This document shows, piece by piece, positions 3,112 through 61,503 of a stretch of 61,503 nucleotides of DNA (position 1 is its first letter; the number at the start of each line of letters is the position of its first letter). The notes under the pieces are model-generated. The model had not been told where the DNA came from. It did no database searches and saw nothing but the letters and a program-made list of their open reading frames with translations. A program made the translations under genes and the position numbers. Location of the stretch: NCBI GenBank assembly GCA_044356725.1, contig JBIKVS010000006.1, forward strand, positions 1 through 61,503, given 5' to 3'. The DNA is from Minisyncoccia bacterium (GTDB taxonomy: Bacteria > Patescibacteriota > Minisyncoccia > SW-4-49-11).

Positions 3112-3171
3112 GCTATATACCATGATAACATTTATATCATAGCTATATACCATCATAACATTTATATCATA
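3112..3171. repeat. Two tandem 30-bp direct repeats (one mismatch), each with an ATGATA-N7-TATCAT dyad; candidate operator upstream of the double-GT2 gene
   Basis: gctatataccatgataacatttatatcata (3112-3141) and gctatataccatcataacatttatatcata (3142-3171), read directly. Located 75-135 nt upstream of the ATG at 3037. Confidence 0.85.
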
Positions 3172-3247: not shown

Positions 3248-3757
3248 CTATTTTCGAAAAAGTTGGAAGTAGCCCTCCTCTACAGGTTTCAAAGTATTAT
3301 CCCTTTCATCTGGGACCAAGTTGATATGAAATATTGTTTTAGGGTAAAAGCTGTGTGCCACAACCACAAGGTTATGGGGATATAGCATCTTGAGCCTTCG
3401 CACGAAGTCTTCCTGCTGGAGAACATCCTTCTTCTGAACCATCGTCGCAATGGTGATCTTGTGATCTGTCATTGTGACAGCAGATACCCCATTCCCTCGG
3501 TGAGGGATGAATGATAACTGGTCTGCCCCATCATATGGAAAGTAGATACCCATATCCTTTAGCTCTGTCTCTGTAGCTCTCTTGTATACGGTTGGGCCAA
3601 CCTCAATCAGGTTAGCTTTGTCCTGAGGAAAGCACCGTACCAGAACATTGCTGTTCTGACTAACAATGATATCCTCCATTGACTCCAAAGGAATTTTATG
3701 TTCGTTGCTAACGAACAAAGAGATTACAGTGGCCTTGGCGGGAATGATGGCGGTCAT
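3248..3757 (-). CDS. Hypothetical protein, 169 aa, compositional outlier
   Basis: ORF track; no family recognised. Two 60-nt stretches I hand-counted gave about 40% and 48% G+C, clearly above the flanks. Has its own promoter and terminator. Confidence 0.6.
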   Translation of the reverse strand: MTAIIPAKATVISLFVSNEHKIPLESMEDIIVSQNSNVLVRCFPQDKANLIEVGPTVYKRATETELKDMGIYFPYDGADQLSFIPHRGNGVSAVTMTDHKITIATMVQKKDVLQQEDFVRRLKMLYPHNLVVVAHSFYPKTIFHINLVPDERDNTLKPVEEGYFQLFRK

Positions 3758-8957: not shown

Positions 8958-9494
8958 CTATTGTTCTAAAATATCTTCTATAGAGCTTAATAAAGCCTCC
9001 TTCTTCTTTTTGACTGCTAGTTCTAATAATTCATGCATACTACTAGAATCTTGGATTAACCTAGAGCTAGCATGCTTCCTGTGATATACTCCACCTGCTC
9101 TTAATACATCTGGATAATCTCTTTTACAAATAGTCGGTACTGTAAAGAATTCATCTACTTCAAAGATTAGAAGTTTTTTATTTTCATATTCTACTTTCTT
9201 AATATTATAATGTGGTAATGGATCAAGATATAGACCTAGATGATTATCTATCCAAGTTCTATCTATACTTTCTAAATCCTCACTACTAAGTCCAACTATT
9301 ACCTTAGAATCTGACACTCCAAATATCAGCATACCTCCATTAGGCATATTAGATATAGCCGCTATATGTTTAGCTAATTTAGTCTTATTATAATCGTTGA
9401 ATTTATGCCAATTAAAATTCTCTTTAAAGTCAATATGATTGTCCTCATAACTTTCTTTGATAACTTTATCTAATAGCTCTGGAGTGTATTTCAT
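8958..9494 (-). CDS. AlbA_2 (Schlafen-like) DNA/RNA-binding domain protein, stand-alone
   Basis: IDFKENF...LAKHIAAISNMPNGGMLIFGVSDSKVIVGL matches the AlbA_2 core pattern. 178 aa, no other domain. Confidence 0.6.
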   Translation of the reverse strand: MKYTPELLDKVIKESYEDNHIDFKENFNWHKFNDYNKTKLAKHIAAISNMPNGGMLIFGVSDSKVIVGLSSEDLESIDRTWIDNHLGLYLDPLPHYNIKKVEYENKKLLIFEVDEFFTVPTICKRDYPDVLRAGGVYHRKHASSRLIQDSSSMHELLELAVKKKKEALLSSIEDILEQ

Positions 9495-9503
9495 ATAGAT
9501 ATT

Positions 9504-10889
9504 TTAATAGTAAGGCATAGGTCTTGGCATTGGGATAATCTCTGTGATACCTGTTTGGAATAAAATCAAGTATAGAGATAATATAAGTATAAACCAAATA
9601 AATTGTAAGATTACAATGGATAATGCATCGCCCCAACCTTTTCTCACCCCAATCATCATAGCAGGAGCGAGTATAATAAATGTATATAATAAGTTTGTTA
9701 TAACTGATATAAGTGAGCTAAATGTATTATCATAAATCAAAGACTGCCAGCTATTATATTGATTTAATACTATCAATATAATATTAACAATAATTAGCAA
9801 GATAACCGCACCCAAACTCACTAATATATTAGTCAAATTGAATAAATGAATAGAATTTTTATTGGCAATATTAATAGGTTTATCTTGGGTTTTATCACTC
9901 TCTTTGGAGATATTCTTATGGTTAGAGTTGATATATTTTGAGATAAGATAGATTATGGATATTATGATAACTATGACGATAATCGTAATTATAATTTCAC
10001 TCAAATATAATCTAAACCAATTTTTAGCATATTCGCCTCTTACATTAAAACTTTCATTAGGAGCTAGACTTTTAGATTCTTTTATAATGCTACCAGAGTT
10101 CCCAATATTGCTAACTAAACTATCCAACTCTCTACTAGATACAGCTGATGAATCTCCTAACTTAGCCATAGGGACGAAACCAGTCTCATTATAATTGACA
10201 AATGATTGTTGCCCCTTTAATAATAAATCGCTATCGACATCCACTGCAACTCTAATATTTTGAATTCTAGAATTAACTTTTATAGTCTCAAAGTTGAACT
10301 TATATAATCCAAAACTTTCATTTACATAACCTTTAGTAGCATAAGATAGAATAATAGCCGTAGACTTATTAGTCTCTACTAGATTTGGAAGTTTTAAATT
10401 ATAAATATTGTCTGATTTGGTATATTTGATTCTAGTGTATTCAGCTGTCTGACCCGAACCATAGTAATAATAATCCTGTCCATAATCTGGGTCTCTATAT
10501 TCTACACAAGGATTATTAGGATCAGTATAATTGTATCTAATACATTCTGGAGGTAATTTCATCTGATACATTATCATCTCAGATACATCAACCTTTGGTA
10601 TTTTAAAACTAAATTCAGTTAGAGCTTGCTCTTCCTGATTGGGGATAACTAATTTAGCATAAGTAATAGCCTCTCCATTAGCACGAAAAACCACACTATA
10701 TGAATGTTTCTGACCAAATAAAAGTGAGTTAGAAGTATCCGGGTTAATTGGTGGCATAATTCTACCAATATCTGGAGCCACTGAGCTACTACTAGCAGCT
10801 TCCTGAGCCAATAATACTCCACCAAAGTTAGCTAAAAATAGACCCAATACAAGTACTAGAGCTATAGATTTTTTGATTATTTTATACAT
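9504..10889 (-). CDS. Secreted/membrane protein of unknown function
   Basis: Signal peptide (IALVLVLGLFLANFGGVLLA), a roughly 280-aa extracytoplasmic region, then about 4 TM helices. Sits 9 nt upstream of the AlbA_2 gene. Confidence 0.6.
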   Translation of the reverse strand: MYKIIKKSIALVLVLGLFLANFGGVLLAQEAASSSSVAPDIGRIMPPINPDTSNSLLFGQKHSYSVVFRANGEAITYAKLVIPNQEEQALTEFSFKIPKVDVSEMIMYQMKLPPECIRYNYTDPNNPCVEYRDPDYGQDYYYYGSGQTAEYTRIKYTKSDNIYNLKLPNLVETNKSTAIILSYATKGYVNESFGLYKFNFETIKVNSRIQNIRVAVDVDSDLLLKGQQSFVNYNETGFVPMAKLGDSSAVSSRELDSLVSNIGNSGSIIKESKSLAPNESFNVRGEYAKNWFRLYLSEIIITIIVIVIIISIIYLISKYINSNHKNISKESDKTQDKPINIANKNSIHLFNLTNILVSLGAVILLIIVNIILIVLNQYNSWQSLIYDNTFSSLISVITNLLYTFIILAPAMMIGVRKGWGDALSIVILQFIWFILILSLYLILFQTGITEIIPMPRPMPYY

Positions 10890-11009
10890 ATTTTTATTTA
10901 GTAAATTAATACTAAATATATTATAGCATAGATTTAAAAAATTATCTCAAATTTAGGAAAAGCAAATATTCTCAGAAAAAAAACTTTTACAACTAATATA
11001 GTAGTGATT

Positions 11010-11354
11010 TTATTCGTTGTGATTTTGATTGACTTTAAAAGCAATAATTCTCTCAATCAAATCATAAGGAATGGGTTTATCGAGAGGAAATTGTACGGAA
11101 CCCTTACCCTGTTTGTATTGAGATAATTCTTGCGTAAATTGTTTATGAGCTTTAGGAGTGGCATATAGTCCAATATGATGTTCAAAGGCGGCAAAATATA
11201 CCAGAGGCTTATTATTGACTTTAAAAGCTGGCATTGCATAAGAAATACTCTCCTCAGCCTCTGGAGCTAAAGTCTTGACCAAATTATACAGTTTATTCAA
11301 AATAATTTGAGTTGATTCAGGGAATTGTGATATATATTCAGGTATAGAATTCAT
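11010..11354 (-). CDS. DUF1801 (YdhG-like) domain protein
   Basis: ISYAMPAFKVNNKPLVYFAAFEHHIGLYATP...GKGSVQFPLDKPIP is typical of the YdhG/DUF1801 family. Confidence 0.65.
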   Translation of the reverse strand: MNSIPEYISQFPESTQIILNKLYNLVKTLAPEAEESISYAMPAFKVNNKPLVYFAAFEHHIGLYATPKAHKQFTQELSQYKQGKGSVQFPLDKPIPYDLIERIIAFKVNQNHNE

Positions 11355-11441
11355 ATATTGTTAATTTACATTATATATAGTATAGCATATTGACTATATT
11401 ACTAATATGTGATTATATAATTCTGTCTTGCATTTTCAAAA

Positions 11442-12035
11442 ATGAACAGCTATTCCATTCAATTCATTGCCCAACCCCAAAGAGGGAAAGGGAGAACTTG
11501 GGAATTGTCTCAATGTTCTGATATGACCAAGGTACTGGAACGCCTAAGAAGAATACGCCAATTAGTGACTCTAATAGCAGGCCCTAATTCTGATATTCTG
11601 TCAGAACTTACTGATTGGGAGAATATTACCCAAAGCTGTAATCCAATTTGGAAAAGAACTATCACTATATCTGATTCAAGAGCATATACATTCCTCATTA
11701 ATTTGTCTAATAAGCAGGCCCTTATCACTGCAAAAAGCCAAGGGAGGCCACTTCGTAAAATCGGATTACCGAAGGCAATCGATATGGAGTCTTATCAGAA
11801 AGTAATTAGTTTTATGTATATATTCATTCGATTACTTGAGGGTATGAATAGCCCTAATGAAGAGTGGGTCAAGGATATGTCAGTTGTTCAAACTAAACCC
11901 CGTCAGGGCTGGAGTGATAATAAAGAGATAAAGCATTTATTAAATATTTTTCCCCTATTACAAGCACCTCCTCCCCCCGAGATTACCATTGCAGTCCCAG
12001 CATCTTCTTATGAGATAATTATCACAAAACAATAG
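11442..12035 (+). CDS. Hypothetical protein, 197 aa, G+C-enriched orphan
   Basis: ORF track; no family recognised. The first 60 nt hand-counted at about 45% G+C. Strong terminator follows. Confidence 0.55.
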   Translation: MNSYSIQFIAQPQRGKGRTWELSQCSDMTKVLERLRRIRQLVTLIAGPNSDILSELTDWENITQSCNPIWKRTITISDSRAYTFLINLSNKQALITAKSQGRPLRKIGLPKAIDMESYQKVISFMYIFIRLLEGMNSPNEEWVKDMSVVQTKPRQGWSDNKEIKHLLNIFPLLQAPPPPEITIAVPASSYEIIITKQ

Positions 12036-12046
12036 CCCTATCTCCT

Positions 12047-12076
12047 CACCCCGTAATTTGCGGGGTGTTTTTATTT
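12047..12076 (+). terminator. Rho-independent terminator
   Basis: caccccg-taatttg-cggggtg followed by tttttattt. Confidence 0.75.
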
Positions 12077-12131
12077 ATATAGATTTAAAGAGAGTCTCAT
12101 TTTTTTGATATTATTAGCACAAAATTTTCTC

Positions 12132-13316
12132 TCATCTCATTTCTGCAAGTTTATTTGAAAATAATATTCCAATTCGATTTGTTTTTTCATTTAGTCCTGG
12201 CATACGAGTTAGTAATAAACGTTTAATTAAATCTTGATTATCTTTAGTTAGATATCCTAAAATAAAATTTATAAATTCCTGAACTGTTGTAAAGTCTGCC
12301 AAAGCTTTCTCTCTTTCAACATTTGTCAAATAATTTTTCATTGTCTTTGCAATTATTCCTTCATCTTCCTCAAATAAAGGAATAAAACTTTTGTCAAAGT
12401 AAATATCTTCAAACATTAGTTTTCTTGGGTCAATGTTTCCGTGTAGAAAATCGTTACGATTATTCATTAAAGTTTGAAATCGCTTGAACTCATCTTTTTC
12501 ACTATCAATTGGCTTAAGGAAACCATCACAATTCAAATGTAGTGTTTTAACTCGAGTGTCAATTTGTTGTCGAATTAAATTCTCGTATAGGCGCTTATCT
12601 TGTTTAAATTCATTCTTTGATAGTAAAAGGATTAATAGGTTTACAAATGACTCAGCTAACACTGGTGTCAACATTCTAATGGTAGTTCCTAATGTAACAG
12701 CTCTTTCTGTATTAATTATCCATTGATTAAAGTTTTTGTCATACTCTGCTCGTATTTCATCAGAAGGATTTAGCTCAAGCTTTTTAATTTCTTTGATATC
12801 TAAACTTCTCAACTCCTTAATTAGCTCTTTAAGAGTATCTTGAAGTCTTGTTACTGGATTGATAAACAAAGTCCATTTTTCAAAATCTTTTTGAACTACT
12901 TTCATCTGTTCCTTATAAATCTGATAATTACTTTGAATATTATTAATTAATAAGTCCCAATTTTCTTTTTCAAAATTTACTTCATTTGGAATTCTGATAT
13001 GAATTTCAATCCCACGACTTTGACCTAAAAAATGAATTTCACTTCCATGTATGAGAAAAGTATAATGCCAATGAATTAAATTATCGGTTGTCTCCCTGTT
13101 TTTTAAGTACATAATAAGTCCGTTTGGATCACCAAATCTAGCTTTTAGTAACTTATAAAGTGTAAGTGGAGAAAGTTTTTTTGAGTCATTTTGCCAAGTA
13201 TAGAGAGGATGTGTTGTATTGTCAACATCCATCTTTTTAAGATTTGATTGAATCCAGTCAAATCCTACTGGTGTCCAATTATCAAGATTAAATATTTCAT
13301 TAATAGTAGTGCTCAT
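12132..13316 (-). CDS. Hypothetical protein with C-terminal HEPN-like Rx4H motif (candidate RNase toxin / abortive-infection protein)
   Basis: 394 aa, alpha-helical-looking C-terminal half with LMNNRNDFLHGNIDP (R-N-x3-H). The N-terminal roughly 150 aa is unrecognised. Confidence 0.45.
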   Translation of the reverse strand: MSTTINEIFNLDNWTPVGFDWIQSNLKKMDVDNTTHPLYTWQNDSKKLSPLTLYKLLKARFGDPNGLIMYLKNRETTDNLIHWHYTFLIHGSEIHFLGQSRGIEIHIRIPNEVNFEKENWDLLINNIQSNYQIYKEQMKVVQKDFEKWTLFINPVTRLQDTLKELIKELRSLDIKEIKKLELNPSDEIRAEYDKNFNQWIINTERAVTLGTTIRMLTPVLAESFVNLLILLLSKNEFKQDKRLYENLIRQQIDTRVKTLHLNCDGFLKPIDSEKDEFKRFQTLMNNRNDFLHGNIDPRKLMFEDIYFDKSFIPLFEEDEGIIAKTMKNYLTNVEREKALADFTTVQEFINFILGYLTKDNQDLIKRLLLTRMPGLNEKTNRIGILFSNKLAEMR

Positions 13317-14518: not shown

Positions 14519-15322
14519 TCATTTAAATTTAATGCCAACCTCTGCTTCTAGCCAAAAGCCAAAGGTATTTATAAAGTTTATAATAACTTCTACATCATCT
14601 ACAGGATTAATTGCTAATTCTAAAGCCATCCTCATTTCATATTCTTTTTCAGGATAATATTTGCTGAAAATCTTATACGATGGATATAAATCTCTAGTAA
14701 ATACCTTTTCCTGATCTATAACTAACACAAATCCAGCTCTTAATATTCTTTTCATAACCCAACGACACCATTCCTGAATATCTTCTTTATCTTGATTATT
14801 TACAATACCTTTGATAGTATTTTCAAATACTATTTTCAAATTTTTTGGAATAAGAATATTTGCAGTTTTTATATCTGCCTTAAAATTCTCAATTTCATCT
14901 GATATATCGTCCCCATAAATACAAACACTTTGAGTTTTAATTAAAAATTTATAATTAGCTAGATTATCGCTATTCAATAATTCATCATATTTTAGAAAGG
15001 AAAATTCTACTCCCGTAGAAAATGTAAATTTTGTATCTAATGTTTTTCTTATCGGTTTTATCCAAGATTTATCTATGTCTTGAGTTATGATAGCTAAAGT
15101 ATCAATATCTGAGATACCTTCTATTGCCTCTCCCTTAGCCACACTTCCTCTGACATAAATACTCTTTAATGAATCTTTGGTATTATCTAAATATGCTTGT
15201 TTTATCTCCTCCACCGCCTCTCTCCAAGGGGATTTTATTTTATCAAGAGATGATTCATTGATAATAAAGCCATTCTCATCTGTTGTAAGTACACTGCCTA
15301 TCTCTAAAATTGGATTAGTCAT
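14519..15322 (-). CDS. Nucleotidyltransferase-fold protein, AadA/ANT(3'')-like architecture
   Basis: IYVRGSVAKGEAIEGISDIDTLAI fits the GSx10-12(D/E)xD NTase motif. Length of 267 aa and a helical C-terminal half resemble aminoglycoside adenylyltransferases. Confidence 0.5.
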   Translation of the reverse strand: MTNPILEIGSVLTTDENGFIINESSLDKIKSPWREAVEEIKQAYLDNTKDSLKSIYVRGSVAKGEAIEGISDIDTLAIITQDIDKSWIKPIRKTLDTKFTFSTGVEFSFLKYDELLNSDNLANYKFLIKTQSVCIYGDDISDEIENFKADIKTANILIPKNLKIVFENTIKGIVNNQDKEDIQEWCRWVMKRILRAGFVLVIDQEKVFTRDLYPSYKIFSKYYPEKEYEMRMALELAINPVDDVEVIINFINTFGFWLEAEVGIKFK

Positions 15323-15384: not shown

Positions 15385-15819
15385 ATGTCGGAAAAATTTT
15401 TGCCTTATTGTGCGGTGTGGGTGATTTTATACAATGACAAGCAAGAAATATGTCTCCTAAGAAGATTTAATACTGGTTATATGGATGGAACTTATACTGT
15501 TCCAGCTGGGCATCTTGAGGAAGGTGAAAGTTTAAAACAAGGAGCTCATCGTGAAGCTTTGGAAGAAATTGGGATTAATATTACTAAAAGTAAATTAATA
15601 CATACTGCTTATCGTGAAAGAAGGAATGACAGAATTTATATTGATGTATTCTTTGAAGTTCTAGAATACATTGGAGAAGTTTCTAATGCAGAGCCTGATA
15701 AATGTGATGAGATTATTTGGGTGAGTAAAGAAAACTTACCATCTGCAATGGCACCTAGCCTGAGATATGCTCTGGAATCTATATTCCGAGGGGAGATTTA
15801 TTCTGAATATGTAGAGTAG
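15385..15819 (+). CDS. NUDIX hydrolase
   Basis: Nudix box GHLEEGESLKQGAHREALEEIGI. Confidence 0.85.
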   Translation: MSEKFLPYCAVWVILYNDKQEICLLRRFNTGYMDGTYTVPAGHLEEGESLKQGAHREALEEIGINITKSKLIHTAYRERRNDRIYIDVFFEVLEYIGEVSNAEPDKCDEIIWVSKENLPSAMAPSLRYALESIFRGEIYSEYVE

Positions 15820-15825
15820 GGTGAA

Positions 15826-16118
15826 AAGCTAAGTCCTCCCTCACCCATCGCAAATGGGATTTGCTCCTGTGAAACCTCACGGTTTCCCAACCTTCCTCCA
15901 CGGGAAAACTACCTTTTTCCCGACCCCTTTCCCAAAGGCTAAGGCCTTTTTACGGGTACTCCCTCCACTTGCCTCCCGTAGGAATGGAAGAGGGACAAAA
16001 AAAACAACCAACTTGTCCTCCCTTGGGGGAGGTGGCACGAAGTGACGGAGGAGGACAGTCTATATCATTTACAAAGCCTTGTTTTTATGATATAAATTGA
16101 TAGTTATCTACCATCGAG
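15826..16118. repeat. G+C-rich mosaic repeat locus R2 (modules A, C, D)
   Basis: Module A 15851-15953 matches 44564-44672. Module C 15951-15997 matches 44387-44436 (inverted) and 60016-60059. Module D 16013-16080 is identical to 16556-16623. Confidence 0.85.
16068..16096 (+). promoter_or_regulatory. Promoter carried inside repeat module D (TTTACA-17 nt-TATAAA)
   Basis: tttaca 16068-16073, 17-nt spacer, tataaa 16091-16096. GAGGTG RBS at 16116-16121, then ATG at 16128. Confidence 0.5.
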
Positions 16119-16127
16119 GTGGTTTCA

Positions 16128-16364
16128 ATGTCTAAGATTATAGTCTTTGAGATCCTGTGTATTTCACCTTACAAGATTTATGTCTTTATCAAGAGTCTTA
16201 CAGATACTGTTGATGAACCTTTAAAAATTGATATTGATCCAAGTGATGGAGAATTAAGATTTTTCACAGCCCTTCAAACAATTATTGACGATACAGATAT
16301 TCCTCTAGATATACGACAACAGGCGGAAGCAATGTATGACTCTGAATTTCTCAGGCATTGCTAA
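16128..16364 (+). CDS. Small hypothetical protein (78 aa, acidic C-terminal half), cassette 1
   Basis: The ORF track entry starts at GTG 16119; ATG 16128 has better spacing to GAGGTG. Flanked by the module D promoter and a terminator module. Confidence 0.45.
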   Translation: MSKIIVFEILCISPYKIYVFIKSLTDTVDEPLKIDIDPSDGELRFFTALQTIIDDTDIPLDIRQQAEAMYDSEFLRHC

Positions 16365-16396
16365 CACCCCAATCACTCCCATCAAAAACACCCCTC

Positions 16397-16421
16397 CCAG
16401 CCCCCAAAGGCTGGTTTTTTC
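16397..16421 (+). terminator. Rho-independent terminator (module E) after small ORF 1
   Basis: ccagcc (16397-16402), loop cccaaa, ggctgg (16409-16414), then tttttt. Confidence 0.7.
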
Positions 16422-16610
16422 TTGCTTTTTTTCGTAGGGCTTTTGTCCCTCCTATTATTTCTTTTAAAGAGATATTAGGAGGGGGTAACCTTTCAGTCGC
16501 CCGAAATCCACCTCCGGCACTTCGTGCCACCCTCGCCGGCGAGGGATAGTTATTTTTGTCCTCCCTTGGGGGAGGTGGCACGAAGTGACGGAGGAGGACA
16601 GTCTATATCA

Positions 16611-16639
16611 TTTACAAAGCCTTATTTCTGTGTTATATA
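16611..16639 (+). promoter_or_regulatory. Second copy of the module D promoter (TTTACA-17 nt-TATATA)
   Basis: tttaca 16611-16616, 17-nt spacer, tatata 16634-16639. GAGGTG at 16659-16664, start GTG at 16670. Confidence 0.5.
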
Positions 16640-16669
16640 TTAAGGGTTGTCTACCTTTGAGGTGATATA

Positions 16670-16975
16670 GTGAAAATACCACCATTTGTAAAAATAGATG
16701 ATCATTTATATATAAATACTTGTGTAGTTGATTGTATTAACCTCGGATTACAAATCTTAGGGGGGGGATACATATCTAAAGATATAGGGATACTATATAG
16801 AAATCAAGTAATAATAGATGTTTTTGATAGACGTTATATATACTTTCTATTATCCCCTGAATCAGAGATCAGTAAAATAATTTTAAATTTATCATTAAGT
16901 TTAAATAAAAAATTTTTACGAGAGTTGTTTTCTACATTTTATCGTACATATATATTTACAAAAAATGATTGTTAA
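16670..16975 (+). CDS. Small hypothetical protein (101 aa, GTG start) containing a G8 tract, cassette 2
   Basis: ORF track. Same upstream promoter/RBS module and same downstream terminator module as ORF 1, but an unrelated sequence. Confidence 0.45.
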   Translation: MKIPPFVKIDDHLYINTCVVDCINLGLQILGGGYISKDIGILYRNQVIIDVFDRRYIYFLLSPESEISKIILNLSLSLNKKFLRELFSTFYRTYIFTKNDC

Positions 16976-16977
16976 AA

Positions 16978-17201
16978 ATACCCTCCCAGCCCACAAGGGC
17001 TGGGATTTTTGCTTTTTTCGTAGGGGCGACTGAAAGGTCTTCTCTACAAAGTGGAGGGATAAACCCTCCGCTACGAAATTAATAATTCGTAATTTATTTT
17101 TCCACCCCGTCCAGCAAAGCTGTCCACCCCTCAAGAGGGGAATTTTAATACAAAGTACAGGCGACTGGCAGGAGGCCCCTACAATTCATAATTTATAATT
17201 T
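16978..17201. repeat. G+C-rich mosaic repeat locus R4 (modules E, B variant, G, F)
   Basis: cgtaggggcgactgaaaggtc; ctacaaagtggagggataaaccctccgctacg (compare 60090-60121); aagtacaggcgactggcaggaggcccctacaattcataatt (compare 60065-60094 and 28608-28645). Confidence 0.8.
16984..17019 (+). terminator. Rho-independent terminator (module E) after small ORF 2
   Basis: tcccagccc-acaa-gggctggga (9-bp stem) followed by tttttgctttttt. Confidence 0.75.
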
Positions 17202-17212
17202 AAGATTAGACT

Positions 17213-17815
17213 TTATCGCCTATTCTTAAAGGCAGCAATGAGGGTGTCTTGGTCTACATATTCGAGTAAAGTCCCATTAGCTAGTCCCCTACCGAGGCTA
17301 CTGATATTACCGCTAAAATCTTTCAACTGTTGTCTTATGTATTGGGCTGTTCTATCTCCTTGTGCGGTGGGGCTGGTGGCTATTATTATGTCTTGAATAT
17401 GTTCGGTTTTAATTCTATGTAATAATTCACTAATATGCAAATCTTCTGGTTGTGAGGCTTTGAGCGGGTCTATGACTCCCCCGAGTACATGGTATCTTCC
17501 ACTATAGACTTCAGTTCGCTCAATTTGTAGTATATCCTCAGCATATTCTACAATACAGATTGTACCTGTGTCTCTGATTTCATTATTACAAATATTACAA
17601 GTTTCTCCCTCCGAGGTATTATAACAAATGCTACATTGCCTAACTAATGTCTTGATTTTGTGGATTTCCTTAGCTAATTTGGTAAGATAGGTTTGGTCTT
17701 GATTAATTAACCAATAGGCATATCTAGTAGCAGTTTTGCGACCTACTCCTGGTAGTTGCCGAATATCTTCAATTAGCTCATTGACTGAAGCTGGTGGAGT
17801 GATTTTACGCTGCAT
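17213..17815 (-). CDS. recR: Recombination protein RecR
   Basis: HhH (LPGVGRKTATR), C4 zinc finger (CSICYNTSEGETCNICNN) and Toprim region. Confidence 0.9.
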   Translation of the reverse strand: MQRKITPPASVNELIEDIRQLPGVGRKTATRYAYWLINQDQTYLTKLAKEIHKIKTLVRQCSICYNTSEGETCNICNNEIRDTGTICIVEYAEDILQIERTEVYSGRYHVLGGVIDPLKASQPEDLHISELLHRIKTEHIQDIIIATSPTAQGDRTAQYIRQQLKDFSGNISSLGRGLANGTLLEYVDQDTLIAAFKNRR

Positions 17816-28497: not shown

Positions 28498-28646
28498 AAT
28501 GATGAGTTATAAGTGGTGAATTATGAATTTGGAATGTTAAATGATGAATTGGGAATTGAGAGTTTCGTAGGGGCGACCTTTCAGTAGCCTGAAACAGTTC
28601 ATATAAATACGGGCGACTGAAAGGTCGCCCCTACAATTCATAATTA
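28498..28646. repeat. G+C-rich repeat locus R7: about ten 7-nt tandem units, then a 19-bp perfect inverted repeat, flanked by AATTATGAATT/AATTCATAATT
   Basis: Heptamers 28500-28569 (tgatgag|ttataag|tggtgaa|ttatgaa|tttggaa|...). gtaggggcgacctttcagt (28567-28585) is the exact reverse complement of actgaaaggtcgcccctac (28616-28634). Confidence 0.9.
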
Positions 28647-43615: not shown

Positions 43616-44140
43616 TTATTTGGTGTCTCTATAAGCTGATAAAACAGTTACGAGACCACGAGCTACTCCTGAGGTTACTTGCAAGAATTGAGTCATAGGA
43701 GCTGCAATAGTTCCTACTACTTGAGCTTGAAGTTGTTCCTTAGAAGGTAATTTAGCAAGAGTTGTTACTTGTTCTGGTACAAGATATTTACCATCTAATA
43801 ATCCTCCTACTAAAGTAAAAGTATTCTTAGGTGCTGATTTAGAGAAATCATTAATTACTTTTGCTCCAAAAACTGGATCATTAGCAAAGACAACTCCCAG
43901 ATTTCCTGGTAATTGATCAGATAAAGAAAGACTAACACCTGTATTTTGTAAAGCTTTATTGAATAAAGTTTTCTTTACAACTTTATAGGTAGCTCCTTCT
44001 TCTCTTAACTTAGTTCTAAGTCCCTGTAAAGCAGAAACACTAGATCCTTGAAAATCAGTAAAGACCATACCTTGTGCAGAAGCAATAGTATCTTGCAATT
44101 CTTGCAACATTTCTTTTTTGCGTGATTTTGTTAACGCCAT
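43616..44140 (-). CDS. rplJ: Ribosomal protein L10
   Basis: Likely start is [10 protein letters not shown] at 44140; the ORF track extends to 44200 through the leader. Typical L10 sequence. Confidence 0.88.
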
Positions 44141-44316
44141 AATAGTATTATCTATATAATTTAACAAAAAAGCTCGACCTTTAGCCGAGACATCGTACAA
44201 ATAAAGTGAAATAATTTCACTGATTTGCCTACATAAGACTTCTGTGTAAACACTGCTTATGGTCTCTGGCTTGTAGCTTTGTATATAATAATAGCATAAG
44301 ATATATGTTTAGTCAA
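44141..44316 (-). promoter_or_regulatory. rplJ promoter (TTGACT-17 nt-TATTAT at 44316-44288) and structured 5' leader (candidate L10-leader-type autoregulatory element)
   Basis: Roughly 140-nt leader with hairpins (agtgaaat-aa-tttcact; ctcggc-taaag-gtcgag followed by cttttttg) before the ATG. Family identity not verified. Confidence 0.4.
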
Positions 44317-44350: not shown

Positions 44351-44697
44351 TATTAATTGTGAATGGTGAATTGGGAGTTGTGCTTCTGTCTCCATTCCAT
44401 CCCTACGGGAGGCAGGCGGAGGGAGTACCCGTAGGGGGAGGGTGGATAATGCTTAAAATACTGAAATAAACTCTTGTTTGTATTAATATTACAATCTATC
44501 CACCACCGGCACTCCGTGCCACCTCCTCCAAAGGAGGACAAAATACTCCACCCCCGACCGTCACAAATGGGATTTGCTCCTGTAAAATCTCACAGGTTTG
44601 GCCAACCTTCTGCCACGGGAAAACTACCGTTTTCCCGACCCCTTTCCCAAAGGCTAAAGCCCTTTTTTCAGGTACTTCCTCATAAGGGTGACAAAAA
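44351..44697. repeat. G+C-rich mosaic repeat locus R5 (heptamers, module C inverted, module D inverted with AT-rich spacer, module A)
   Basis: ttaattg|tgaatgg|tgaattg heptamers. 44387-44436 is the reverse complement of 15951-15997. 44441-44540 is the reverse complement of 59886-59996. 44564-44672 matches 15851-15953. Confidence 0.85.
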
Positions 44698-59831: not shown

Positions 59832-60121
59832 TGATGTATTATGAGTTGTGAATTTAGTAGGGTCGACCTTTCAGTCGCCTGTTTTTGTCCTCCTTTCTAC
59901 CTACGGCAGATAAATGGAGGAGGTGGCACGCAGTGCCGGTGGTGGATATTAAGTTTAATATTATTACAAGTAAGAGTTTATTTTAGTATTTTAAAGTCTG
60001 TCCTCCCTCCCCCTTCGGGTACTCCCTCCAACTACCTACGGCAGTTAAAAAGGGAGACAATATAAGTACAGGCGACTTGCAGGTTGTCCCTACAAACTGG
60101 AGGGATAAACTCCTCCGCTAC
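59832..60121. repeat. G+C-rich mosaic repeat locus R6 (heptamers, B arm, module D with 19-nt insertion, AT-rich spacer, modules C, F, G)
   Basis: gtagggtcgacctttcagtcgcc 59858-59880. Module D 59886-59945 with inserted ctacctacggcagataaat (59897-59915). 60016-60059 matches module C. 60065-60121 matches 17153-17183 and 17043-17075. Confidence 0.85.
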
Positions 60122-60220
60122 CAATATAATGTCGGCAGGGCGCTGACTCTACGAATGACAAATGACTGAAATAACTGGCTCCCGGACTTGTCTACCGTAG
60201 GTAGAGGAGCCAGGTGCCCC

Positions 60221-61503
60221 TCAGCGAAGGACACAACGGAAACCAACAGTAGTAAACGAATTGGAAGGAGTATTAGATAGACGCAGAGCAAAGACCCCTG
60301 CAATAGATGTATCACTCCAATGACCACCACGGAGGAAGGCGAAAGGGCCTCCTGTTAAACCTCCTGCATAGTATTGCCCTGTATTTTGGGTGCTATTCCA
60401 ACTAGTATTACTTGGGCGGGTTAGGTCATAACTTAGGGTTCCAAAGTTGCTTATTGCTGTCCATTGTTGCCATAAGCTTCCTGAGCTACTATTTGGTTTG
60501 TTTTGTCCTTGTATGGTATCACTTGTCCATTCCCAGACATTTCCACCTAAGTCCCAGATTGTCTCTCCATTACTTAAGGTATGGGTTCTTCTCTCTATGC
60601 TTGGGGATACATTGCCCGTCCCAAAGTATGGATCATTATCTGTACTTGCTGCTAGGGCAATACTAGGATTATTATCGCTATGTCCTCTCCATAAGCCTCC
60701 ACTTCCTACTGTTCCTCCTGTCCAGTTTGTTCCTTGTCCTTCTATATTTCTTGCTATGGTCATCCATTCATTGTTATTGATTAGTCCATACCCTGCTCCG
60801 TTTAGACTACAGGCTGTGATTGCATTTGTTTGGCTTATATTTACTGTAGGAAATCCTGTTGCTGCGGTTGTGGCTGCTACTGTTGCTGAGCCTGTCTTTG
60901 CTTCATATTTCATTACACAGAAATCGTTGGTGCCATACATACTGTTTCTAGGTACTGCTATATAGCCGGTGGGACAGCTTATTGTTGTGCTTGGTCTGTC
61001 TATATAGGTCTGTGTCCCTGCATTATTCTTATATACTAATCTATTTAAGACTAATTGTTGTGTCCCTGTTGGCACTAATGTCCCTGCTGTTATCTGGGCT
61101 TGTATTCTTTCTTCTACTCCTGGATTTACTACTATTATTTGTCCTAGCTCTGCATTGCTTGCTGTGACTCTTATTCTATTGTTCTCTTCATTTATACTTA
61201 CTCTATATTCTCCTCCTGATGGTGCTACTGGTATCCCTGCTATATAATCCGGTACTAGTACTCTTAGATCTGCTTTATTGCTACAAGTTGTTGCTCCTCC
61301 TACCTGTTCTGTTCCTGTTTGACATATGTCTTTTAATGTTGTTGTTATCCCTGCGGGATAGCTTCCTGTGTCTATTAGGTATTGTTCTATTGCTTTGTAG
61401 ATTGTATTTATATCTGCTCTTCTTTGTGCATTCCTGGCTTGTGCTATCTGTCTATTTGGGTTTACTGCTACTAGTACTATTGCCGCTAATATCCCTATCG
61501 CTG
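60221..61503 (-). CDS. Prepilin-type N-terminal helix fused to an FGE-sulfatase/SUMF1 (C-type lectin fold) domain; 5' end beyond window
   Basis: The ORF track lists only 60221-61075. The frame stays open to 61503 and reads ...IGILAAIVLVAVNPNRQIAQARNAQRRADINTIYKAIEQYLIDTGSYP (type IV pilin / T2SS pseudopilin helix). FGE-domain motifs: DFCVMKYEAK, NEWMTIARN, WEWTSD, RGGHW, VGFRC. Confidence 0.8.
   Translation of the reverse strand, partial: AIGILAAIVLVAVNPNRQIAQARNAQRRADINTIYKAIEQYLIDTGSYPAGITTTLKDICQTGTEQVGGATTCSNKADLRVLVPDYIAGIPVAPSGGEYRVSINEENNRIRVTASNAELGQIIVVNPGVEERIQAQITAGTLVPTGTQQLVLNRLVYKNNAGTQTYIDRPSTTISCPTGYIAVPRNSMYGTNDFCVMKYEAKTGSATVAATTAATGFPTVNISQTNAITACSLNGAGYGLINNNEWMTIARNIEGQGTNWTGGTVGSGGLWRGHSDNNPSIALAASTDNDPYFGTGNVSPSIERRTHTLSNGETIWDLGGNVWEWTSDTIQGQNKPNSSSGSLWQQWTAISNFGTLSYDLTRPSNTSWNSTQNTGQYYAGGLTGGPFAFLRGGHWSDTSIAGVFALRLSNTPSNSFTTVGFRCVLR
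60224..60349 (-). other. Putative DGR variable region (VR) within the FGE/C-type-lectin domain
   Basis: All scaffold codons are adenine-free. Interspersed NNT codons. Peptide LRGGHWSDTSIAGVFALRLSNTPSNSFTTVGFRCVLR. See findings. Confidence 0.6.

Follow-up and report, generated by a model that had tools for sequence, protein, structure and literature searches.

The spacer between a NUDIX hydrolase gene and recR in a 61,503-nt stretch of DNA from a Minisyncoccia bacterium (GenBank assembly GCA_044356725.1, contig JBIKVS010000006.1, positions 1 to 61,503; hereafter the window) is probably a recombination-prone accessory locus, in which two self-contained small genes, ORF1 and ORF2 (ORF, open reading frame), stand in homologous regulatory shells and are embedded in a mosaic of hairpin repeats resembling repetitive extragenic palindromes (REPs) and bacterial interspersed mosaic elements (BIMEs). 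The window has a GC content of 33% and its gene content is that of a housekeeping region (rplS, four tRNAs, recR, dnaB, argS, frr, lepA, rplJ and others); the feature occupies the whole 1.39 kb of the spacer (Table 1). On the reading that we favour, ORF1 and ORF2 would be monocistronic small-protein genes, each with a sigma-70-like promoter (TTTACA, 17 nt, TGnTATAWA), the Shine-Dalgarno sequence (SD) GAGGTG and an intrinsic terminator. Their shells, made up of a promoter-leader of about 60 nt and some 40 nt of terminator with a GTAG-headed REP, are homologous around unrelated coding regions. Related lineages would replace and reshuffle the alleles through homologous recombination of imported DNA, for which the common shells and the flanking repeats would serve as crossover handles. 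Selfish GC-rich hairpin repeats (modules A, B, C, D and F) would have accumulated around and between the two units to give the mosaic, and a recent gene conversion or short duplication in this lineage would have made the two copies of a 68-nt repeat (the 68-mer) identical. The related contigs are Patescibacteria metagenome-assembled genomes (MAGs) labelled Paceibacteria or Parcubacteria, and the comparison sample comprises only about eight related lineages, among them lineage X (L082, a Paceibacteria MAG lineage) and lineage Y (L061, or L061/L088).

Expression shells and their cargo

A preliminary description of this DNA had proposed that two unrelated small ORFs are packaged by the same repeat modules. 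The identity of 68 bp on which it built is borne out base by base by sequence reading and by a repeat finder, without a mismatch, and both copies, 543 nt apart, are present in five independent assemblies (L095, L096, L097, L098, L101), so that the duplication is not an assembly artefact. The further 45 bp or so said to be three-quarters identical are also found, the 41 nt past the 68-mer being about 73% identical between the copies; similarity reaches each start codon, as a 109-nt repeat (16013-16121 and 16556-16664) of 90% identity. The 42-nt head of the 68-mer occurs twice in the window at up to three mismatches and in none of 100 shuffles. The TTTACA box, the 17-nt spacer, TATAAA or TATATA and GAGGTG can be read before each ORF as described, and a related terminator module closes both ORFs (16385-16420 and 16974-17009, 81% identity), each copy being called by a scan as a hairpin followed by a T-run, the form of an intrinsic terminator. 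Between the two units, the similarity of the leaders scores 30 (13.5±2.4 in shuffles) and that of the 3' flanks 58 (11.9±1.9 in shuffles). The two ORFs themselves are, as claimed, unrelated, with no similarity in any frame, and ORF2 as a diverged or frame-shifted paralogue of ORF1 was rejected (hhalign probability 0.2%, at most about 1 bit in a six-frame hmmsearch, local nucleotide score below the shuffle mean).

The same shells recur in the relatives. Eleven cassette copies from eight lineages all keep TTTACA, the 17-nt spacing, TGnTATAWA, a TCTACC box and the SD, and are variable in the sequence of the spacer and in the upstream arm. The leader comes in two flavours, of which beta precedes ORF2 (window, L061, L093) as well as some ORF1 alleles (L090, L094). 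The terminator CCCAGCCCC.AAGGGCTGG with its T-run, followed by the GTAG-headed REP (module A), is common to ORF1 alleles, to one gene of a branch of 70-aa (amino acid) homologues and to ORF2. In the roughly eight related lineages, promoter-leader and terminator modules are restricted to the flanks of ORF1-family genes and of ORF2, and recR is always next to them. A conserved leader hairpin or anti-SD structure was ruled out, since RNAalifold predicts no pairs.

The ORF1 family consists of about 15 orphan proteins, 70-95 aa long and confined to this clade, and the frame is kept through in-frame indels across these divergent homologues, with recurring conserved hydrophobic positions; omega (the ratio of non-synonymous to synonymous substitution rates) is 0.17 within the 70-aa branch. 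The AlphaFold (AF2) model of ORF1 has three helices at a pLDDT (predicted local distance difference test) of 68, and its best Foldseek match in the PDB has E=2.5 (2qzg, UPF0147, TM score 0.48). Membership of UPF0147 (PF03685) was rejected at 14.4 Pfam bits (E=0.042), below the 23.6-bit threshold, and large cadherin and Calx-beta proteins matched by the ORF1 profile were judged to be noise from acidic repeats and not homology. ORF2, which assembly GCA_041447075.1 carries, lies in a 104-codon stop-free run within DNA of about 25% GC, a length reached in 5 of 5000 shuffles; its AlphaFold model is unusable (pLDDT 39), and no family or structure match was found in Pfam, PHROGs, PADLOC or the PDB sequences. 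The sensitive profile and structure searches that the preliminary description had called for yielded a small orphan family for ORF1 and no match for ORF2. For neither protein did PADLOC, Pfam and PDB sequence searches give a defence or toxin annotation, nor did viral-contig scans, tblastn against phages and PHROGs point to a phage or viral origin. The product of ORF1 may be involved in some conflict or interaction.

Table 1. Features of the NUDIX-recR spacer and its borders, in window positions.
Feature	Position	Strand	Basis and remarks
NUDIX hydrolase gene, conserved left border	15385-15819	+	Pfam NUDIX E=4.7e-19; syntenic in L082, L061, L088, L095
Module D, hairpin-rich dispersed repeat of ~120 nt, terminator-like hairpin at end	15834-15951	+	Second copy 44547-44666, 81-88% identical; ~10 copies in non-syntenic loci
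Module C, GC-rich hairpin repeat, right-arm type	15951-16000	+	86% complementary to 44384-44433; found again, as ...CTCCCCCTACGGGTACTCCCTCC..GGGAGAC, at many other places
68-mer copy 1: module B (16015-16056) and locus-specific 24-nt tail with -35-like TTTACA (16068-16073)	16013-16080	+	Copy-number map: only 16013-16057 multi-copy
Predicted promoter-leader, unit 1, flavour alpha	16068-16127	+	TTTACA 16068-73, 17 nt, TGaTATAAA (ends 16096), TCTACC box, GAGGTGG 16116-22, ATG 16128; read from sequence
ORF1, acidic protein, small orphan family	16128-16364	+	78 aa from ATG (81 aa from upstream GTG); homologues P0002-P0016
Predicted intrinsic terminator, unit 1: CCAGCC-CCCAAA-GGCTGG + T6	16397-16420	+	Hairpin and T-run scan (16397-16414 + T6); conserved behind ORF1 alleles in L082, L087, L091
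REP-like module A (CGTAGGG...TAACCTTTCAGTCGCCCG), split by nested hairpin insertion 16440-16485	16433-16503	+	Compared with unsplit CGTAGGGGCGACTGAAAGGTC at 17019-17039, L093, L094
Module B inverted (B')	16504-16549	-	25 nt, 92% complementary to 16031-16055 and 16574-16598; core pattern matches
68-mer copy 2: module B (16558-16599) and tail with TTTACA (16611-16616)	16556-16623	+	Sequence reading, repeat finder
Predicted promoter-leader, unit 2, flavour beta	16611-16669	+	TTTACA 16611-16, 17 nt, TGtTATATA (ends 16639), TCTACC box, GAGGTG 16659-64, GTG 16670; read from sequence
ORF2, orphan protein, GTG start	16670-16975	+	101 aa; known relatives only P0004 (L061/L088) and a truncated copy in L093
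Predicted intrinsic terminator, unit 2: 9-bp stem + T-run	16984-17010	+	Scan (16984-17005 + T5); fold energy -24.6 kcal/mol, z=-3.96
REP-like module A: GTAG head and palindrome GGCGAC/GTC	17019-17039	+	Inverted copies 16488-16502, 17158-17182
Module F, dispersed two-hairpin right-arm repeat (CCACCCCGTCCAGCAAAGCTGTCCACCCCTCAAGAGGGG)	17101-17146	+	~20-28 copies in non-syntenic loci
recR, conserved right border, convergent with the small ORFs	17213-17815	-	Pfam RecR_HhH, Toprim_4

Exchange between lineages

The main argument for exchange is a contrast at synonymous sites, expressed as the proportion of such sites that differ. Between the window and lineage X this proportion is 0.47 in the NUDIX gene and 0.61 in recR, and in ORF1 it is 0 of 48.8 sites, the three differences there being all non-synonymous; between the window and lineage Y it is 0.43 and 0.39 in the same two genes and 1 of 63 sites in ORF2. 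Both coding regions are 98.7-99.3% identical to those of lineages whose flanking genes differ at 39-61% of synonymous sites, and the neighbouring genes of near-identical small ORFs have dS (synonymous substitutions per site) values of 0.5-1.3. Lineage Y's own ORF1-family protein is only 30% identical to ORF1 of the window. The content of the slot varies, with ORF1 alone in L082-86, L087, L090 and L091, a 70-aa branch gene and ORF2 in L061/L088 and L093, and ORF1 and ORF2 together in the window, and recR adjoins the ORF1-family gene, in convergent orientation, in every lineage with a long enough contig. Between the window and L061 the blocks after the terminators are swapped, with the junction at the boundary of terminator and CGTAGGG. 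The variable cargo of the preliminary description therefore behaves like exchangeable cassettes across lineages, as the synonymous contrast and the slot variation indicate. Gain or loss at the strain level, which it had suggested looking for, was not seen: 13 contigs of the window's own species, from several samples, have one arrangement, with 0-4 mismatches among the spanning loci compared. Many short-read contigs of that species (L096, L099-L105) stop directly after ORF1 or start shortly before ORF2, so that assemblies evidently break here at the dispersed arms and at the 68/109-nt repeat.

A local tandem duplication of the ORF1 unit, with ORF2 then arising in the duplicated shell, de novo or by divergence past recognition, would mean that nothing is portable. 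The two units are indeed adjacent, in direct orientation and within homologous shells, and ORF2 is an extremely AT-rich orphan, known from three lineages only and always downstream of an ORF1-family gene. However, the non-coding flanks are 73-81% identical and the coding regions lack similarity in any frame, which points to replacement and not to divergence; moreover, lineages with dS values of 0.54-0.63 in the flanking genes have ORF2 sequences of 99.3% identity, and ORF2 hence moves between genomes whatever its origin. We regard this explanation as unlikely.

On its right, the 68-mer ends inside the promoter spacer, just past the -35 box; beyond this point, copy 1 continues as an alpha leader (matching L091 and L082) and copy 2 as a beta leader which, from 16624 on, is nearly identical to the ORF2 leader of L061. 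Because 68 nt at 100% sit in shells that are otherwise about 73% identical, a recent gene conversion or short duplication within this lineage is the most likely origin of this identity.

Some observations weigh against the reading of the spacer as an accessory locus of two exchanged genes. A consensus promoter scan called neither of the two predicted promoters, since that scan demands a T in position 6 of the hexamer, where both TATAAA and TATATA have an A. When the window is compared with lineage X, similarity is higher in the coding region than in its promoter (about 80-86%), and crossovers would therefore need to fall almost at the start codon and at the terminator. Omega is about 0.7-2 in the 78-80-aa branch of the ORF1 family, which taken alone is what non-coding DNA would give, and ORF2 differs from its relative at two positions, too few for a test of selection. 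Since the 78-80-aa branch has such values, the coding status of ORF1 rests on frame preservation and on the sister branch, and on these grounds we judge ORF1 to be a real gene, whose 78-80-aa branch is evolving fast and possibly diversifying. Conservation as coding sequence, the absence of which had been named as a ground for dismissing the small ORFs, is thus seen for ORF1 in its frame and in the 70-aa branch, but not in the substitutions of the 78-80-aa branch, and ORF2 offers its two differences. It might be supposed, accordingly, that the ORFs are not genes at all and that the spacer is a graveyard of repeats with chance open frames, given an omega of about 1 in ORF1's own branch, the lack of family, structure or defence-library matches and the poor ORF2 model. 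Against this stand the frame kept in some 15 homologues, the omega of the 70-aa branch, the rarity of the ORF2 run in shuffled sequence and the correctly spaced SD and terminator of each ORF; moreover, it is in the ORFs that the sequence of the locus is free of repeats. Of all the explanations considered here we find this one the hardest to credit.

The hairpin repeat mosaic

The preliminary description had treated the 68-mer as one portable module and the repeat modules as portable expression signals. When copy number across 15820-17212 was mapped against 0.62 Mb of non-syntenic sequence, the multi-copy stretches were limited to 15840-15940 (module D), 16013-16057 and 16500-16600 (B, B' and B) and 17100-17145 (module F). 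The stretches 16058-16499 and 16600-17099 are single-locus, and so are the 68-mer tail that includes the -35 box, the promoter-leaders, the two ORFs and their terminators. The 68-mer is a dispersed repeat, module B, followed by about 25 nt of locus-specific sequence with the -35 box. Only its 42-45-nt head is dispersed, and the same promoter-leader is found in relatives behind another hairpin arm or none: in L061, where module B is absent at both places, one promoter-leader follows the NUDIX stop codon directly and heads a 70-aa ORF1 homologue, and a second stands behind a C-type arm and heads ORF2. A profile of the promoter-leader, searched against about 0.62 Mb, matched only its four building sites, two in the window and two in L061, and the only match of a relaxed pattern in a metagenome collection was a contig of lineage Y. 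By these comparisons, the shell goes with the ORFs and not with module B, and the 68-mer would not have arrived as a mobile promoter. The notion of portable signals holds in that unrelated coding regions sit inside homologous 5' and 3' shells, but promoter-leader and terminator are confined to this locus and clade.

Module B, GTCCTCCCTTGGGGGAGGTGGCACGAAGTGACGGAGGAGGAC, is GC-rich, forms two hairpins and is scattered through Patescibacteria genomes. In genomes of the candidate phyla radiation (CPR), 69 of 74 copies are intergenic; relative to co-directional neighbour genes, module B lies antisense in 22 cases and sense in 7, and a same-strand gene follows downstream in 18 of 57 copies, so that it is not a general carrier of promoters. 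Copies of the head elsewhere, which had been expected to precede ORFs, do so on the same strand in these 18, but no promoter follows them there. Its relatives within the window lie at 16504-16549 (-), 44497-44541 (-) and 59890-59946 (+). Among 185,579 species genomes, the core GGTGGCACGNAGTGNCGGNGGNGGA was matched at 81 loci (about 0.3 are estimated to be expected by chance), mostly in Patescibacteria MAGs with many copies each, with further matches in Smithella and other Deltaproteobacteria, Bacteroidales, Flavipsychrobacter, Hyphomicrobiales and Margulisbacteria. Module B is usually the left arm of a bipartite element, in which the arm is followed by an AT-rich loop of 20-60 nt and a right arm such as CTCCCCCTACGGGTACTCCCTCC..GGGAGAC. 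The 25-nt core, a first hairpin that varies by compensatory changes and the layout of arm, AT-rich loop and arm are also found in Deltaproteobacteria, Bacteroidota and Margulisbacteria (L031, L032, L064, L006/L069, L075, L012/L025), so short a core thus being conserved across phyla.

The 61.5-kb window holds about eight copies or remnants of module A and five of module B. Module A is a GTAG-tagged imperfect palindrome, (C)GTAGGGGCGAC..GTCGCC, at 17019-17039, 28567-28589, 59857-59881 and elsewhere; module B has no GTAG (or CGTC) tag, and the tag that is typical of REPs is therefore a property of module A only. An inverted doublet of module A at 28567-28634 (23-nt arms, 96% complementary, 22 nt apart), flanked by a minus-strand gene and a VanZ-like gene, resembles a REPIN (REP doublet forming hairpins), and high copy number, extragenic location and inverted doublets, as known from REPs and REPINs, are all found. 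Several modules are interrupted by others: in L082 (2873-2935) the central hairpin of module B is exchanged for TCCCTCCCATATTAATATGGGAGGGA, module A is split by a 46-nt hairpin in the window (16440-16485), and the first hairpin of module B carries an extra hairpin at 59890-59925. This suggests that hairpin modules insert into each other. Two full B-loop-C elements, 44384-44543 (-), directed towards rplJ (43616-44200, -), and 59886-60064 (+), carry promoter-like sequences (TTACAA / 17-18 nt / TATTTT) in their AT-rich loops; similarity of these loops to the ORF promoter-leader has no statistical support. The idea that a short B-loop-C element supplied the promoter-leader as its loop, suggested by a resemblance by eye to 59946-60000 and 44433-44497, was also rejected, with no nhmmer match there at E<=10. 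As for terminal inverted repeats in the two full elements, the left arm and the reverse complement of the right arm give a local score of 20, which is not significant (shuffle mean about 14, maximum 23-25).

These repeats raise the question whether the small ORFs are passengers of composite transposons, similar to REPINs or to MITEs (miniature inverted-repeat transposable elements), that are moved by a REP-associated tyrosine transposase (RAYT) or another IS200-type transposase. ORF1 lies between inverted B arms (16015-16056 and 16504-16549, 92% complementary), ORF2 between inverted REP-A copies (16488-16502 and 17024-17038, 100% complementary), and ORF1 of L087 is likewise bracketed, by a left arm of C type and by a B arm in inverted orientation; the GTAG head of module A and its doublet at 28567-28634 would also be in keeping with such an origin. 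However, the ORF1-family gene of L061 has no left arm and that of L082 no right arm, the density of arms here makes bracketing by chance likely, neither ORF has copies elsewhere, the arms of the full elements are not significantly alike, no insertion sequence was seen, and no transposase was seen among the ORFs of at least 100 aa between 8958 and 27090. Passage by composite transposition is thus quite unlikely, and we retain the reading in which the repeats accumulated around genes that are exchanged by homologous recombination.

Two further observations concern module B itself. In Hyphomicrobiales MAGs, a 45-nt module B (compare 16015-16059 of the window; hairpin and GGTGGCACGAAGTGCCGGAGGGGGA core) stands in frame within coding sequence (L063 306-1688, +; L042 5875-7167, -), where it reads ...SSPLAGEVARSAGGG... 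in the linker of a pyruvate dehydrogenase (PDH) E1-beta protein, and two copies lie in linkers of an E2 acyltransferase. This recalls the in-frame palindromic elements of Rickettsia; neither the in-frame strings nor the module B core strings were found in the literature. As for known RNA families, only a sub-threshold match to the whalefall-1 motif was obtained, with 18.1 bits for both copies (the gathering score being 37), and the threshold was not reached in 18 other module B loci either. Whalefall-1 is Rfam family RF01762 (Weinberg et al. 2010, PMC2864571) and has no known function. Module B aligns with it end to end, from a first hairpin, whose loop is UUGG, through another hairpin to the tail GAGGAC.

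Known systems and significance

The resemblance to a cassette array that the preliminary description had noted does not extend to the defining parts of such arrays, and its remark that no recombinase is in view holds for the ORFs of at least 100 aa between 8958 and 27090, among which Pfam gave no integrase or transposase and where the genes are housekeeping or defence-like. As in integrons, small ORFs are separated here by structured repeats and the cargo is variable; unlike in integrons, there is no adjacent intI in that range, regular expressions for the attC core pairs (R'' RYYYAAC, R' GTTRRRY) found none on either strand of 15820-17212, and there are two units at most. Integron cassettes are, moreover, mostly promoterless and share the common promoter Pc, whereas each ORF here has its own predicted -35, extended -10, SD and terminator. 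An integron-like site-specific system, in which GC hairpin arms (B, B', C, F and REP-A) were folded-DNA sites and a distant recombinase moved promoter-ORF-terminator cassettes, would account for cargo that differs among lineages at one fixed locus, for the nested insertions as a sign of module movement and for stems of the first B hairpin that vary by compensatory changes around a 25-nt core constant across phyla, as expected of a hairpin recognised by a protein. Besides the missing recombinase (none within about 10 kb) and attC pairs, however, the separate predicted promoters and the limit of two units, the arms around orthologous ORFs differ or are absent in relatives and the cassettes were not found at any second locus, and such a system seems very improbable. 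We consider it just as improbable that the arms (B, C, F and REP-A) are folded-DNA sites of an undescribed, non-integron exchange of cassettes in Patescibacteria, in which a distant enzyme would recognise the invariant GGTGGCAC..GTGCCGGAGGTGGA core and move units between genomes; were this true, the element family would be an ancient, cross-phylum mobile hairpin, able to insert in frame into protein linkers.

The repeats come closest to the REPs, BIMEs and REPINs of Proteobacteria, which are GTAG-tagged and associated with RAYTs. They share with them short GC-rich imperfect palindromes, a high copy number, intergenic location and mosaics of mixed modules, and module A has both the GTAG head and an inverted doublet. 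They differ in that module B consists of two hairpins and a fixed core, GGTGGCACGNAGTGCCGGAGGTGGA, without the GTAG tag, in that the host is a member of the Patescibacteria with 33% GC, and in that no RAYT was seen within the 61.5-kb window. In the full-text literature no description of REP-, MITE- or REPIN-like repeats in CPR was found, and the REP/BIME-like hairpin repeat set of CPR genomes is newly noted here.

For the exchange of the genes, the minimal mobile elements of Neisseria offer a parallel, in which transformation and homologous recombination exchange cassettes of whole genes at sites flanked by conserved genes. The present locus is likewise fixed between conserved housekeeping genes, has a lineage-dependent content and near-identical cargo in diverged genomes, and shows no dedicated recombinase within about 10 kb; unlike in Neisseria, its units share promoter and terminator sequence, which apparently provide extra crossover points, and the genes are tiny orphans. 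Correia elements (Neisseria miniature insertion sequences, NEMIS) and similar MITEs donate promoters or terminators to neighbouring genes, and here too a -35 box has a dispersed hairpin repeat immediately upstream and some B-loop-C loops are promoter-like (44433-44497, 59946-60000). The dispersed repeat, however, includes neither that -35 box nor the remainder of the promoter, and most B copies have no same-strand gene downstream (18 of 57 do). Taken together, the description of the same expression shell around different cargo is upheld. The dispersed repeat, however, is a thing apart from the shell, the shells are not portable genome-wide, and the locus is not an integron-like array.

Variation in this part of the genome is not restricted to the spacer. 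A nucleotidyltransferase gene (14519-15322, -), divergent from the NUDIX gene and weakly similar to oligonucleotide cyclases of the CBASS type (cyclic-oligonucleotide-based antiphage signalling system; PADLOC E ~1e-5, Pfam SMODS 0.09), has its position taken by unrelated genes in relatives, namely one for a 182-aa protein in L082 and one for an HD-domain protein in L088, and the variable region therefore spans the tRNA cluster to recR. Beside the tRNA cluster lies a possible defence-type gene for a Schlafen/AlbA_2 protein (8958-9494; PADLOC PDC-S50, E=6.5e-12), and the possible defence-type genes of 8958-13316 also include those for a 461-aa protein without family and a 394-aa protein with a faint HEPN match. 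Elsewhere in the window, two tandem direct repeats of 30 nt (3112-3171, 97% identical) lie just outside the 3' end of a gene at 3248-3757 (-), and an FGE-sulfatase-like gene (formylglycine-generating enzyme; 60221-61075, -) with a GC content above the window average comes after more hairpin repeats (60066-60260).

In the tiny and densely packed genomes of CPR, a repeat mosaic of 1.4 kb with two orphan genes stands out. The repeat families A, B, C, D and F should be useful to CPR annotators, as they break metagenome assemblies and as GC-rich arrays can yield long spurious open frames. The locus is also a tangible example of genes passing recently from one CPR lineage to another, and it shows that regulatory shells can be reused around unrelated small proteins.

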